DNA from: a phage
Length of the DNA stretch: 64,000 nucleotides
Reading direction: 5' to 3' (one strand)
Assembly: GCA_011939005.1 (NCBI GenBank)
Contig: GCA_011939005.1_4858.1
Numbering within the stretch: position 1 is the stretch's first letter; every line of letters begins with the position of its first letter. The translations under genes and the position numbers were made by a program. The notes under the pieces were generated by a model. It saw only the letters and a list, made by a program, of their open reading frames with translations, was not told the origin of the DNA and made no database searches. This document shows, piece after piece, positions 16,901 to 37,964 of the stretch.

Positions 16901-16930
16901 ACAAAAAAAAAAGAAAAAGAAATAAGGTTT

Positions 16931-16952
16931 ACCTCTCCCTTCGGGGAGAGGT
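16931..16952. terminator. bidirectional intrinsic terminator between convergent genes
   Basis: stem ACCTCTCCC/GGGAGAGGT with TTCG loop; T-run on + after (16955-16967) and A-run before (16902-16920). Confidence 0.55.
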
Positions 16953-16964
16953 ACCTTTTCTTTT

Positions 16965-29241: not shown

Positions 29242-29384
29242 TAGCCGCGACCTGTACACATGGCAACAGAGTTACCGTTATCGATGCACTTGTTGTAATC
29301 TTGAGTTACAGTGATAGACAGTACCGCGAAAGCAACAACAGCAACGATGGCGAAGATGGCACGTTTATGGTTACGAGTTAACAT
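29241..29384 (-). CDS. small hydrophobic membrane peptide (47 aa)
   Basis: ATG 29384 preceded by conserved leader ...CTAAAGGAGTATTACC; single hydrophobic helix AIFAIVAVVAFAVLSITV; below ORF-track length cutoff. Confidence 0.35.
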   Translation of the reverse strand: MLTRNHKRAIFAIVAVVAFAVLSITVTQDYNKCIDNGNSVAMCTGRG

Positions 29385-29436
29385 GGTAATACTCCTTTAG
29401 ATTAATAGTCGATTGTGTTGATAGATTGTCTTCTAT

Positions 29437-29461
29437 CACCTAGGTAATATATATCTGAAAT
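29437..29461 (-). promoter_or_regulatory. early-type promoter motif TTTCAGATATATATTACCTAGGTGA (copy 2)
   Basis: 25-nt motif, identical to 37940-37964 and 1 nt different from 159-183. Confidence 0.5.
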
Positions 29462-29480
29462 TATTTTTATTCAGAGTACA

Positions 29481-29532
29481 CCCTCTATAACGCTCTCAAA
29501 CGCGTTTTGAGAGCTTTTATCACTATAGAGGG
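29481..29532 (-). other. nested palindromic stem-loop element
   Basis: outer 9-bp stem CCCTCTATA/TATAGAGGG enclosing inner 8-bp hairpin CTCTCAAA-CGCG-TTTGAGAG; lies between terminator 29597-29619 and promoter 29437-29461. Confidence 0.35.
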
Positions 29533-29596
29533 TCGTTCTACCGTTAGAGAGGCTTTAGAAGGTTGTGAGTGCGTTTAGAGGGCTAAAATAAAGAGA

Positions 29597-29619
29597 CCTG
29601 GTCTCACAAGGAGACCAGG
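29597..29619 (-). terminator. intrinsic terminator hairpin
   Basis: stem CCTGGTCTC/GAGACCAGG with ACAAG loop; A-rich 29584-29594 on +; follows stop of 29627-30424. Confidence 0.5.
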
Positions 29620-29626
29620 CACACTT

Positions 29627-30424
29627 TTACATCAAATCCAGGCTCTGTGAGACCGCAACTTCCGGTTCACTGATGCCGCTGGTCACTGACAATGTAAAGC
29701 GACGATCGTTAATCACTTCAACTGCTTCGCTCGCACGCAGTGAATACTTGTCGGCGATTGGCAGTACACTGTTATCGTTCTGTGGCGGCAGAATCTGCGC
29801 CGGGAACGGAATGTACGAGTTGAAAGTGATATACGGACCGACTTGCATCATCGGGAACACTTCGTTCACGTTATTCGACATCCCTTCATCCGAAGAGATA
29901 ACGGAGTGACGCAGACAGGCACGCAAGCCAACGGTGTACTCCGGATCGCGCGATTCGCCGATCAGTGCGAAACGGAACACATTGAAATCGTAGTCGTCTG
30001 CAGCGAAGTGTTCTGGCAGGATACGCTGTACGTATTCAGGGTAAGTGGTCACGTCACCCGGAATAACATTCACGGCGAGTTTCTGTGCCAGGAAATACGC
30101 ATTCGCGAAACCATACTGACCCGCCAGCGCGGCTGAAATCGGTGCTGTGGTTACGCAGTGCAGGAATAAGTGATAACCCAGCCCGCCTTTATCTTCGATT
30201 GCCAGGTCCTTCTTACTCTGCACACCGTCAGCAGTATAAATAACTGCTACTGTCTTATCCAACGTCGACGCCATGACAAAATCCAACTGCACCTCACCGC
30301 TCTGCGGTAGTACCTTAACCAGGCGATCCCAGAGCTTGGTCGGTTTGGTGAAGTTAGCGGCTTCATACGCGTCAATGTCGAGAACAGTTTGGCCGGTCAT
30401 GCGAAAGGTGTGAATCGCTTTCAT
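29627..30424 (-). CDS. hypothetical protein, possible structural protein
   Basis: 265-aa ORF with AAGGAAAA SD. Confidence 0.5.
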   Translation of the reverse strand: MKAIHTFRMTGQTVLDIDAYEAANFTKPTKLWDRLVKVLPQSGEVQLDFVMASTLDKTVAVIYTADGVQSKKDLAIEDKGGLGYHLFLHCVTTAPISAALAGQYGFANAYFLAQKLAVNVIPGDVTTYPEYVQRILPEHFAADDYDFNVFRFALIGESRDPEYTVGLRACLRHSVISSDEGMSNNVNEVFPMMQVGPYITFNSYIPFPAQILPPQNDNSVLPIADKYSLRASEAVEVINDRRFTLSVTSGISEPEVAVSQSLDLM

Positions 30425-37076: not shown

Positions 37077-37114
37077 TATAAATACTCCTTAAGATTAATG
37101 GTCGATTACATACG

Positions 37115-37896: not shown

Positions 37897-37939
37897 ATTC
37901 CTTAAGTGATAGTCGGTTAAAAGATTACCAATGCAATCT

Positions 37940-37964
37940 CACCTAGGTAATATATATCTGAAAT
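37940..37964 (-). promoter_or_regulatory. early-type promoter motif TTTCAGATATATATTACCTAGGTGA (copy 3)
   Basis: 25-nt motif identical to copy 2; directly downstream of terminator 37999-38020. Confidence 0.5.

Follow-up and report, generated by a model that had tools for sequence, protein, structure and literature searches.

A tandem array of GCGTTnnAGAG units, a possible protein-binding site, in an SPN3US-like jumbo phage, unrelated phages, and IncX plasmids

An intergenic region of an SPN3US-like jumbo phage carries seven copies of one 10-11-base unit, GCGTTnnAGAG(G), in a block of about 100 nt, and a three-unit form of the same array recurs in non-coding stretches of numerous unrelated phages and of IncX plasmids. 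The spread of one array family over so many unrelated elements is invisible from the window alone (the whole 64,000-nt stretch of DNA analyzed here). We tentatively favor a head-to-tail protein-binding DNA array as the explanation.

The window shows an SPN3US-like genome in reverse complement, and the genes around the array lie on its minus strand. The intergenic region (29385-29626), given as 240 nt in the first-pass annotation of this DNA, measures 242 nt and has a minus-strand ORF on either side. Read along the gene strand, it contains a terminator, repeats, a nested palindrome, and an early-type promoter, all located where that annotation had placed them. The features are listed below, each with its basis.

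29596-29620, minus strand: intrinsic terminator of the upstream 265-aa gene (terminator scan and inverted repeat)
29571-29582, plus strand: unit R1, reversed, GCGTTTAGAGGG (sequence and unit map)
29553-29562, plus strand: unit R2, reversed and degenerate, CTTTAGAAGG (sequence and direct repeat)
29541-29552, plus strand: unit R3, reversed, CCGTTAGAGAGG (29541-29551 matches the unit with one mismatch)
29524-29533, plus strand: unit R4, reversed and truncated, TATAGAGGGT (inverted repeat)
29504-29514, plus strand: unit R5, reversed, GTTTTGAGAGC (sequence, inverted repeat, and unit map)
29494-29503, minus strand: unit F2, forward, GCGTTTGAGA (exact match to GCGTTNNAGAG, within the profile hit)
29481-29493, minus strand: unit F3, forward, with a G-rich end, GCGTTATAGAGGG (unit search, alignment, and profile hit)
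29480-29533, unstranded: nested palindrome with outer 10-bp and inner 9-12-bp stems (units F3/R4 and F2/R5)
29436-29461, minus strand: early (virion RNA polymerase type) promoter module, ATTTCAGATATATATTACCTAGGTGA (repeated in the window)
29388-29414, minus strand: conserved leader and ribosome-binding module, AATCGACTATTAATCTAAAGGAGTATT (repeated in the window)

Three plus-strand repeats had been described beside the palindrome: TTAGAGAGG (29544-29552), TTAGAAGG (29555-29562), and TTAGAGGG (29575-29582). They are present, but they are copies of the same unit as the palindrome arms, and there are seven copies rather than three. Two are forward on the gene strand and five are reversed. The outer inverted repeat (ACCCTCTATA at 29480-29489 and TATAGAGGGT at 29524-29533) is 10 nt long and 100% complementary, where a 9-bp stem had been reported; unit F3 is its promoter-proximal arm and unit R4 the promoter-distal arm in the gene direction. 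Units F2 and R5 make up the inner hairpin (GCTCTCAAA at 29492-29500 and TTTGAGAGC at 29506-29514). Its stem, first called as 8 bp with a CGCG loop, has 9 perfect pairs (12 nt at 92%) and a 5-nt loop, CGCGT. The canonical first unit of the array, an A-rich run followed by CGCTTAGAGA, is absent in the window. Unit R5 occupies this place as the inverted copy GCTCTCAAAAC and is aligned opposite GCGCTTAGAGA of the relatives. The inverted first unit is a lineage variant within the array family.

The cluster departs from chance. Three of the four CCCTCTA heptamers in the window lie within 102 nt, and 3 of the 16 matches to GCGTTNNAGAG with at most one mismatch fall in about 100 nt, where about 0.03 would be expected (Poisson P of about 3e-6 by hand arithmetic). 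Outside 29480-29582, CCCTCTA, CCYTCTAWA, and GCGTTNNAGAG showed no excess over chance in the window. A profile derived from the arrays of IMG/VR viral contigs, which may include the SPN3US-type relatives L136 and L114, found a single significant site in the 64 kb, at 29503-29478 on the minus strand (E = 0.0015). Two consecutive forward units, GCGTTTGAGA followed by GCGTTATAGAGGG, are read at 29503-29481 on that strand, within non-coding DNA of a mobile element (29385-29626), and the array thus belongs to the family both by sequence and by placement. The first-pass annotation had called the arrangement unique in the window. This holds for the unit array but not for nested inverted repeats as such, a second of which is the A/T-tract-flanked terminator at 16908-16957.

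Comparison with related phages had been suggested as a check, and the region is conserved there, so the initial observation stands. The conserved part is the repeated unit and not the palindrome. At the orthologous locus, 13 relatives carry a forward three-unit array with a period of 10-11 nt. They come from four genera (Seoulvirus, Machinavirus, Erskinevirus, and Wellingtonvirus), and their flanking 265-aa protein is only 47-80% identical. From the terminator to the promoter or start codon, no block other than the array is conserved. Derbicusvirus has no array at this locus. A search of IMG/VR with the 265-aa protein gave two loci only. Unit F2 is conserved across genera. Among five Seoulvirus genomes, the only difference in the forward units is an A-to-G change in SPFM2; unit F3, which corresponds to the Shine-Dalgarno unit of relatives with the Nlig-Ia gene, does not vary at all. 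The reversed units vary more than the forward ones. Unit R3 is the most variable, and unit R1 is kept in all five genomes with one substitution, in MET_P1. In the SPN3US lineage, unit 1 has given way to an inverted copy and four further inverted copies have been gained, and these changes create the palindromes.

The nested hairpin is confined to SPN3US-type genomes, and no comparable palindrome was found in ChrisDB, Caitlin, Wellington, or L013. In the five Seoulvirus genomes, no pair of the hairpin has changed on both sides, and one pair of the outer stem (the eighth) is broken in four of them. A scan of 29300-29700 against Rfam 15 (E <= 10) returned only spurious matches far below the gathering scores. 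The Rfam noise, the zero compensatory pairs, and the palindrome missing from relatives argue against a structured non-coding RNA, which was among the options first suggested; conservation of the unit favors another of those options, a binding array. A link to replication is suggested only by the context in other elements, as arrays adjoin the IncX origin and the DnaA-box region of T5-like phages, and nothing in the results points to packaging.

The hairpin itself could be functional in this lineage as an antisense (plus-strand) terminator, a site for RNase III or other processing in read-through late transcripts, or a cruciform, and we regard this as quite improbable. The palindrome is stable (-29.6 and -40.1 kcal/mol), with folding z-scores of -2.2 on the gene strand and -2.95 on the plus strand. 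The inner hairpin on the plus strand is followed by TTTTAT and was called terminator-like in the terminator scan, and in Huxley an inverted first unit has arisen independently, with a 9-bp perfect repeat. These points are opposed by the missing compensatory changes, the outer-stem mismatch, the relatives that have no such palindrome, the lack of any Rfam match, and the fact that no plus-strand gene lies upstream. The actual minus-strand terminator is a separate hairpin at 29620-29596, GCCTGGTCTC-CTTGT-GAGACCAGGT followed by CTCTTTATTT. It adjoins the 265-aa gene, whose stop codon is at 29627, and the same hairpin is kept 3' of the homologous gene in all relatives.

On the other side of the array, the early-promoter module (29436-29461) has further copies at 158-184 and 37939-37964. 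Its core, CAGATATATATTAC, has three exact copies in the window, each upstream of a minus-strand gene, compared to 0.4 expected for matches with up to two mismatches, and the motif is conserved in Erwinia jumbo phages. Early-promoter motifs of jumbo phages, used by the virion RNA polymerase, have been described (PMC7598289). By its sequence, the module looks like a member of this class, in which an AT-rich motif of about 10 nt is repeated upstream of presumed early operons, and early transcription is predicted to start just 3' of TATATTAC. The leader module AATCGACTATTAATCTAAAGGAGTATT lies upstream of a 47-aa ORF (ATG at 29384) and recurs at 111-137 and 37081-37107. The array is located upstream of the early promoter in the window and seven relatives, and in L158, L190, and L194 it adjoins the -35 element of a sigma-70-type promoter. 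A sigma-70 promoter inside the array was rejected by eye, as the hexamers match at no more than three of six positions and have the wrong spacing.

At E <= 0.01, a search of a phage collection yielded 300 records, of which 172 were near full length, against six weak partial matches for a shuffled query. The family size rests on this set, and the 890 records at E <= 10 are an overstatement, because some short BLAST matches are coding-sequence coincidences, such as rI.-1 in ECD7 and MobV in a small plasmid, both discarded as false members. A second copy of the array is present at another SPN3US site (site 2), at about 137.5 kb. Further members are found in T5-like phages, in which the annotated "inverted repeats B/B'" of T5 are copies, as well as in FelixO1-like phages, Vequintavirinae, Vibrio T5-like phages, and lambdoid prophages. 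IncX plasmids carry two copies between the origin and stbDE. In viral contigs, exact two-unit matches have strongly patterned flanks; in bacterial genomes the flanks are flat among the at least 111 matches listed, which look like chance.

Among out-of-frame unit spacings, 10 nt is dominant and 11 nt is next, which is the one-helical-turn spacing of iteron- and operator-type arrays. A crude ORF call placed 36 of 50 viral matches in intergenic DNA, and with the same crude caller the orientation relative to neighboring genes was noisy and gave no usable bias. Both unit orientations occur in the window, Huxley, T5, and L138/L070. The full-length matches in phages and plasmids are, among the matches listed, unannotated or placed under "hypothetical protein". 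No Rfam family or paper describing the array was found; multi-unit strings in full-text searches matched guide-RNA scaffolds only, and papers on IncX plasmids and on T5/BF23 contain no description of it.

The genes neighboring the array differ between elements. A shared downstream gene family was considered and rejected, as Pfam shows DHFR, Dam, Nlig-Ia, weak HNH matches, and uncharacterized proteins. In sense orientation, the array lies upstream of Dam, DHFR, HNH-like, and uncharacterized genes. At SPN3US site 2, as in FelixO1-like phages and lambdoid prophages, a terminator comes immediately after it. In SPAsTU, pEa_SNUABM_29, pSal-SNUABM-04, pEa_SNUABM_4, and pEa_SNUABM_6, the array is followed by GGAGG or GAGGG and then by the ATG of Nlig-Ia, a standalone protein (PF22745), and pEa_SNUABM_11 also has the array and this gene. 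The array is kept without the gene in the SPN3US type, ChrisDB/Caitlin, Huxley, Erskinevirus, Wellington, and L013. The ChrisDB sequence reads as that of pEa_SNUABM_4 with the ORF cleanly deleted, and the window reads as a deletion relative to SPAsTU.

These contexts bear on the main rival explanation, which we consider unlikely. The array would be an RNA-level leader and ribosome-binding region that travels with mobile accessory-gene cassettes and serves in mRNA, where it might load ribosomes or hold them on standby, stabilize the transcript, or make the polymerase pause; the array in the window would then be a remnant of a locus that has lost the Nlig-Ia gene. In at least six independent gene contexts, a start codon in sense orientation follows the G-rich last unit at a distance of 5-9 nt, and the unit there acts, by its sequence and position, as a Shine-Dalgarno sequence. 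This fits an RNA-level role equally well and counts against a binding array. The abutting Nlig-Ia start codon in the five relatives named, the two apparent gene deletions, and the sense arrays before Dam, DHFR, and the other genes agree with such a leader, and an array followed by a terminator fits an emptied cassette. By our inference, ribosomes and RNases are also the only machinery obviously common to jumbo phages that bring their own polymerases, phages that use the host polymerase, and plasmids. However, the array is highly conserved in several lineages without the gene, and reversed units are meaningless as the same RNA motif. In the window, the seven relatives, L158/L190/L194, and the T5-like phages, it would lie outside the downstream transcript, because it is upstream of the promoter or between divergent operons.

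The Nlig-Ia presence/absence difference starts at most about 10 nt from the 3' edge of the array in three of the four genera. This would also be expected of a recombination junction, or of a target for a homing or recombination enzyme, at which co-infecting elements swap accessory genes and which persists through repeated re-introduction. Very different genes follow the array in different genomes, and the HNH-endonuclease insertion of T5 is bracketed by the inverted copies IRB and IRB', which agrees with this explanation as well. According to Davison (bioRxiv 10.1101/866236), the T5 insertion splits one ancestral repeat region. We nevertheless judge recombination improbable as the role of the array. 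The arrays have no recombinase or endonuclease as a regular neighbor, their orthologous position in four genera suggests vertical inheritance, and 35-40 bp is short for efficient homologous exchange. The inverted copies face outward in the window and inward in T5, unlike transposon-like ends. A miniature inverted-repeat element or transposon ends were rejected on the same ground, with copies also outward in L138/L070; most members of the family have no inverted partner. The length and architecture of the unit likewise do not suit integron attC/attI sites, CRISPR solitary repeats, type III antitoxin repeats, or transposon ends.

The array may well be a binding platform for a putative factor. 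In the binding-array explanation, the unit GCGTTnnAGAG(G) would be a double-stranded DNA recognition site for a putative sequence-specific protein. The core of the cluster is the head-to-tail array on the gene strand, with three forward units in most relatives. Because successive units are one helical turn apart, the bound molecules would share one face of the helix, and their binding could be cooperative. The units may function in either orientation. The bound complex would mark the boundary between a late structural operon and the next early operon, and might be an operator or insulator that controls the early promoter next to it, or the accessory gene found after the array in some relatives. 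Protein binding, the identity of the protein, and the effect of the binding are what we infer.

A cognate protein is hard to name. The genes near the arrays, which differ between elements, include no candidate, and the finding that the elements with arrays have almost no genes in common speaks against a binding array. SPN3US-type phages have their own RNA polymerases, and they probably house their DNA inside a protein shell from which most host proteins are kept out. With few common genes, own polymerases, and the shell, a common DNA-binding partner is difficult to identify. Of the matches examined on E. coli chromosomes, all were either partial or part of a prophage, with no site seen in the core genome, which argues against an ordinary host regulator; a host transcription-factor regulon was rejected on this basis. 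To our knowledge, the conserved positions of the unit fit none of the consensus sequences of OmpR, PhoB, PhoP, CpxR, ArcA, PmrA, Fis, IHF, H-NS, DnaA, Tus, LexA, CsrA, the cold box, or ops. A broader proposal, which we put forward with somewhat more doubt, is that the array is a previously undescribed cis-element of virulent phages from many families, prophages, and IncX plasmids of Gammaproteobacteria that is read by one conserved factor. The factor would be either host-encoded or carried promiscuously by mobile elements, and the array might serve as a common "handle" for accessory or early gene control, for replication, or against host defence. The seven-unit palindromic cluster of the SPN3US type would be the most elaborate known form of the array.

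The reverse complement of the unit, CGCTCTnnAAC, resembles boxA/nut. It agrees at every conserved position with boxA, GCTCTTTAAC, and the antisense strand, rich in C and poor in G, has a CUCU every 10 nt, which could indicate antisense tandem boxA-like (Nus-factor) or Rho-utilization elements. This is barely credible. None of 50 viral matches has A at the second N of the unit, and a true boxA is never formed, because the central positions equivalent to TT are never AA on the unit strand. The array therefore differs from boxA/nut in having no central TT, and also in its tandem triplicate form and in reading antisense to every adjacent jumbo-phage gene. The boxA, Nus, and rut readings were rejected for the missing TT and the antisense orientation. 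SPN3US-type jumbo phages are, moreover, independent of the host RNA polymerase (PMC7598289).

Several known systems have a comparable layout. Direct-repeat arrays, such as R1 ParR/parC, the TP228 ParG boxes, the pSM19035 omega heptads, the R388 StbA repeats, and the P2 Cox boxes, as well as plasmid iterons, consist of 7-11 bp units arranged head to tail at about one helical turn. They sometimes tolerate either orientation, and they are non-coding and located near promoters or origins. Each plasmid iteron, centromere, or operator array is, as far as is known, specific to one element and its own protein. In contrast, the GCGTTnnAGAG array has the same sequence across unrelated elements and no known cognate protein, and its unit differs from those of all iteron and operator arrays. 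Among phages, the SAS/ESAS of cluster K mycobacteriophages are conserved short non-coding sequences before start codons, of which SAS overlaps the ribosome-binding site, and the PeSL cassettes of T4-type phages bracket exchangeable accessory genes with early promoters and stem-loops. Neither of these is known outside its one phage group, and neither is known to consist of tandem decamers. The GCGTTnnAGAG array, unlike both, also occurs away from start codons and in plasmids.

Non-coding sequences conserved across unrelated phage families and plasmids are rare, and where they occur they are usually a sign that the elements engage something fundamental, be it a host machine, a defence system, or a mobile sub-element. 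The array is short, easily synthesized, and present in tractable T5-like phages, Felix O1, IncX/R6K-type plasmids, and SPN3US, and a partner could therefore be found by a simple pull-down. The middle and late promoters of jumbo phages have so far been poorly defined, and the array could explain the expression or exchange of small accessory genes such as Nlig-Ia, Dam, and DHFR in these phages. As an aid to annotation, it offers a searchable signature of an element that is not labeled as such in any of the records examined. A function for the array would also explain the T5 repeat IRB, which was named long ago.

IRB/IRB' (pre-early repeat regions 1 and 2; AY587007) is of the same sequence family as the array and, like the array in the window, is non-coding and conserved among its relatives, the T5-like phages. 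It has been named only as a repeat, without an assigned function (Davison, bioRxiv 10.1101/866236), and is not previously connected to other phage families or plasmids. In T5-like phages, the array lies in the untranslated spacer between divergent pre-early operons, a region discussed in the same work, with DnaA boxes and a LexA box next to it. In T5 itself, the copies are degenerate, with two units each, and lie about 900 bp apart around the HNH insertion, whereas the window has seven units within 100 nt. IRB of T5 reads CGCGTCAGAAAGCGTTTTAGGCGGC; in EH1, a T5-like phage, the corresponding place is taken by a full array, GGCGCTTAGAACGCGTTACAGAGCGTTTTAGACCC.

The window belongs to an SPN3US-like jumbo phage (Seoulvirus) in reverse complement orientation. 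Between 29000 and 30000 it is 98–99% identical to SEGD1 and SPN3US, and its position 29500 matches NC_027402 at about 65.4 kb. All genes near the repeat block are carried by the minus strand, and the 242-nt intergenic region is arranged as follows, in the direction of transcription:

29627, minus: stop codon of a 265-aa gene
29620-29596, minus: intrinsic terminator after this gene
29582-29480: repeat and palindrome block, after the terminator
29461-29436, minus: AT-rich stretch and early-promoter module ATTTCAGATATATATTACCTAGGTGA, after the block
29388-29414, minus: conserved leader with AAGGAG, between the promoter module and a 47-aa ORF
29384, minus: ATG of the 47-aa ORF

The promoter module and leader are also found at two other intergenic sites of the window, with copies at these positions:

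within 111-184, within 29388-29461, and 37939-37964, minus: early-promoter core CAGATATATATTAC with flanks
within 111-184, within 29388-29461, and 37081-37107, minus: leader ending in AAGGAG

The core has three exact occurrences in the window, against 0.4 expected even when up to two mismatches are allowed. Jumbo phages with a virion RNA polymerase have an early promoter motif that is recognisable bioinformatically (PMC7598289), and the CAGATATATATTAC module, judged by its sequence, fits this type. At the two other module sites the promoter follows a terminator almost directly; an extra ~100 nt between the two is peculiar to the site described here. The leader copy at 37081-37107 stands apart from any promoter copy, the two-part module being otherwise reused.

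Comparison with relatives made the unit anatomy clear. The comparison covered the sequence that follows the homologue of the 265-aa gene (47–80% protein identity) in Seoulvirus, Machinavirus, Erskinevirus, and Wellingtonvirus. Every relative compared from these four genera carries on its gene strand a head-to-tail array of three units, occasionally four, and this array is the sole conserved part of the region in a 14-sequence alignment, which answers the proposal of the first-pass annotation to look for conservation in related phages. Examples, all on the gene strand, are:

ChrisDB: GCGCTTAGAGA, GCGTCTGAGG, GCGTTATAGAGGG
Caitlin: GCCCGTAGAGA, GCGTTATAGA, GCGTTTTAGAGGG
window: GCTCTCAAAAC, GCGTTTGAGA, GCGTTATAGAGGG

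Derbicusvirus (Phobos, CR5, EarlPhillipIV) has no array at this locus, and its early promoter adjoins the terminator. Since relatives show a head-to-tail array, the palindrome in the window can be read as unit copies: each pair of arms joins a forward unit to an inverted copy (F2 with R5, F3 with R4). The nested palindrome described earlier lies where it had been placed (outer inverted repeat 10 bp, inner 9–12 bp), and the three plus-strand repeats reported beside it are present as well; they are further inverted copies, R3, R2, and R1, which brings the total to seven units across about 100 nt. Three of the four CCCTCTA heptamers of the 64-kb window fall within 102 nt, and outside the block the repeat motifs occur at chance frequency only. 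A different nested inverted repeat at 16908-16957, a G+C-rich terminator hairpin between long A and T runs, is probably a bidirectional terminator.

Of the interpretations first offered, a binding array is supported and a structured RNA is not: the palindrome shows no compensatory changes among five Seoulvirus genomes, and the region matches no Rfam family. Folding energies do beat those of shuffled sequences (z = -2.2 and -2.95). Among the five genomes, the eighth pair of the outer stem is broken in four and intact only in the window, and the two inner-stem substitutions are both one-sided. Forward units are invariant save one A-to-G change in F2 of SPFM2, and reversed units are more variable. 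Outside the genus, no equivalent of the palindrome was found in ChrisDB, Caitlin, Wellington, or the relative L013; in Huxley the first unit was inverted independently (AAACGCTCT/AGAGCGTTT), and Asesino has one reversed unit upstream. The conserved feature of the region is not the hairpin. A lineage-specific role for the hairpin, such as antisense termination, is considered only as a very unlikely explanation of the block. On the plus strand, the inner hairpin plus TTTTAT (29492-29514) scores as a terminator, antisense to all local genes, and might stop antisense transcription. A boxA- or rut-like antisense element is barely credible and was rejected, as the central TT of boxA is never formed in the viral matches.

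The motif was further examined in large collections. In viral contigs, exact AGAGCGTTNNAGAGCGTT matches have strongly patterned flanks (T at -3, 76%; A at -2, 70%), with A-rich positions further upstream and, downstream, T and A followed by a G-rich run and another T; the viral consensus is ...AAAAnCsCTTAnAGAGCGTTwbAGAGCGTTTwAGrGGGTAT. In a bacterial genome collection, the flanks were compositionally flat (111 matches among those listed), as expected for chance. When two AGAGCGTT cores were searched with a variable gap, the in-frame periods (9, 12, 15, 18, and 21 nt) were repeats within coding sequence; of the periods out of frame, 10 nt leads, with about 15 of the first 80 matches listed versus 0–8 for the others, and 11 nt comes next. 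By ORF calls that are crude around the IMG/VR arrays, 36 of the 50 viral matches fall between genes.

Exact-pattern scans of IMG/VR viral contigs also recovered multi-unit arrays in contigs unrelated to SPN3US. In an annotated phage collection, a 40-nt consensus query matched 300 records at E <= 0.01 (172 near full length) and 890 at E <= 10, E-values for such queries being approximate and the broad counts not to be over-read because some short matches are coincidences within genes. A shuffled control query gave six weak and partial matches. The array was located in the following settings:

second SPN3US-type site, L140:2495-2532 (JN641803 about 137,540-137,580, outside the window): near-consensus array, then bidirectional terminator
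phiEaH2: upstream of a Dam methylase
T5-like phages of Salmonella, Escherichia, Klebsiella, Pectobacterium, and Vibrio: untranslated terminal-repeat spacer
FelixO1-like phages: 1.6-kb non-coding region, then a hairpin
Vequintavirinae, e.g. SalP219 and PVP-SE1: array present
lambdoid prophages: between replication genes and nin-type genes, then terminator
IncX plasmids: two copies 190 bp apart, between the iteron/DnaA-box origin and the stbDE (phd-relE) operon

The second SPN3US-type array sits between convergent genes 0158 and 0159 and is preceded by TTTATCATCTAAT, which resembles TTCATCGTCTTAT upstream of the first-locus array in Machinavirus. In T5-like spacers the array adjoins DnaA boxes, a LexA box, and a Chi site. 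The pre-early spacers of EH1 (Salmonella, T5-like, L141:1100-2210) and Vibrio phage VCPH (L144) hold a perfect LexA-type box CTGTATAAATATACAG, the Chi octamer GCTGGTGG, and several DnaA boxes besides the array. The annotated "inverted repeats B and B'" of T5 are degenerate array copies on either side of an HNH insertion; the T5 literature names IRB without assigning it a function (bioRxiv 10.1101/866236). In IncX plasmid NZ_CP055050 (L195:1570-2850), both arrays are in direct orientation, lie within a GATC-rich stretch, and are unannotated; its origin has six 22-bp iterons and two DnaA boxes. Matches in E. coli number 1327 on plasmids versus 454 on chromosomes, and the chromosomal ones examined are partial or within prophage. 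In L138 and L070 (IMG/VR; the latter from a 255-kb contig), reversed units CCCCTCTAAACCCTCTCAGG have a two-unit array ~90 nt downstream; they share the window's divergent arrangement, yet are unrelated contigs in which the array precedes different genes (a 93-aa ORF; DHFR). In L030, a 5.5-kb IMG/VR contig, the array lies amid many copies of an iteron-like repeat, GCGACTATCAA(G/A), which together might form an origin of replication.

Binding arrays built from direct repeats are an established class of element, and T5 has a member that already bears a name. No annotation of the element was present in the phage and plasmid records examined, and no description of the array was found in the literature. 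As far as can be determined, it is new that a single array sequence recurs in prophages, IncX plasmids, and phages of many unrelated families; in sampled bacterial chromosomes the sequence does not exceed chance level.

In several relatives the array borders an accessory gene. In SPAsTU, pEa_SNUABM_29, pSal-SNUABM-04, pEa_SNUABM_4, and pEa_SNUABM_6, the final unit has the sequence GGAGG or GAGGG, with an ATG 7–9 nt later, and the protein behind it (131–136 aa) is a standalone Nlig-Ia domain (NAD-binding ligase N-terminal, PF22745), named "putative DNA ligase" in some records. Both array and gene are also present in pEa_SNUABM_11. The gene lies between array and early promoter (relatives L004, L005, L010, L011, L017, and L018), so that in carriers the promoter comes after it. 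It occurs in some Seoulvirus, Machinavirus, and Wellingtonvirus genomes and is cleanly missing in others, including the window. ChrisDB resembles pEa_SNUABM_4 minus the ORF (GAGGGTATTAC, ACTGTAG, TTTGATTAAAAAAG versus GAGGGTATTACGCATG...GCTGCTAC, TTTGATTAAAAAAG), and the window looks like a similar deletion relative to SPAsTU. The gene is thus polymorphic for presence or absence, the difference starting no more than about 10 nt from the 3' edge of the array, with the array retained either way. That the array is a recombination junction for cassette exchange seems improbable.

We infer the function of the array, in this phage or elsewhere, from its architecture. In each unit eight bases are conserved and the next two are semi-free, the period is a strict helical turn with three units as the norm, inverted copies are tolerated in several lineages, and placement is non-coding, beside promoters, terminators, start codons, or origins, in mobile elements only. 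Given these properties and the lack of RNA structure, we tentatively favour a double-stranded-DNA platform for a putative sequence-specific protein that would bind cooperatively on one helix face. What weakens it is the absence of a candidate binding partner: array-bearing elements have almost no genes in common, E. coli genome searches gave no array site in the core genome and hence nothing to suggest a host regulon, and jumbo phages of the SPN3US type are thought to keep most host proteins out of their DNA compartment. This missing partner strengthens the main rival, an mRNA leader with a ribosome-binding region, moving together with small accessory genes and acting through host translation or RNA-decay machinery, the one machinery common to all array-bearing elements. 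That the last unit serves as Shine-Dalgarno sequence, together with the deletion scars, speaks for such a leader, and arrays with a terminator directly behind them fit emptied cassettes; the leader is nevertheless rather unlikely, since some arrays lie upstream of promoters or between divergent operons, some units are reversed, and several lineages have kept the array after losing the gene. With a DNA-binding platform, the seven sites in this phage would span the boundary between the late structural operon and the early operon, and the early promoter could be insulated or regulated by the bound array, as could the accessory gene in relatives. In the homologous region of Salmonella phage SPFM2 (L318), the early promoter is doubled by a 27-nt tandem duplication, with AGATATATATTACCTAGGTGATAGAAG present twice.
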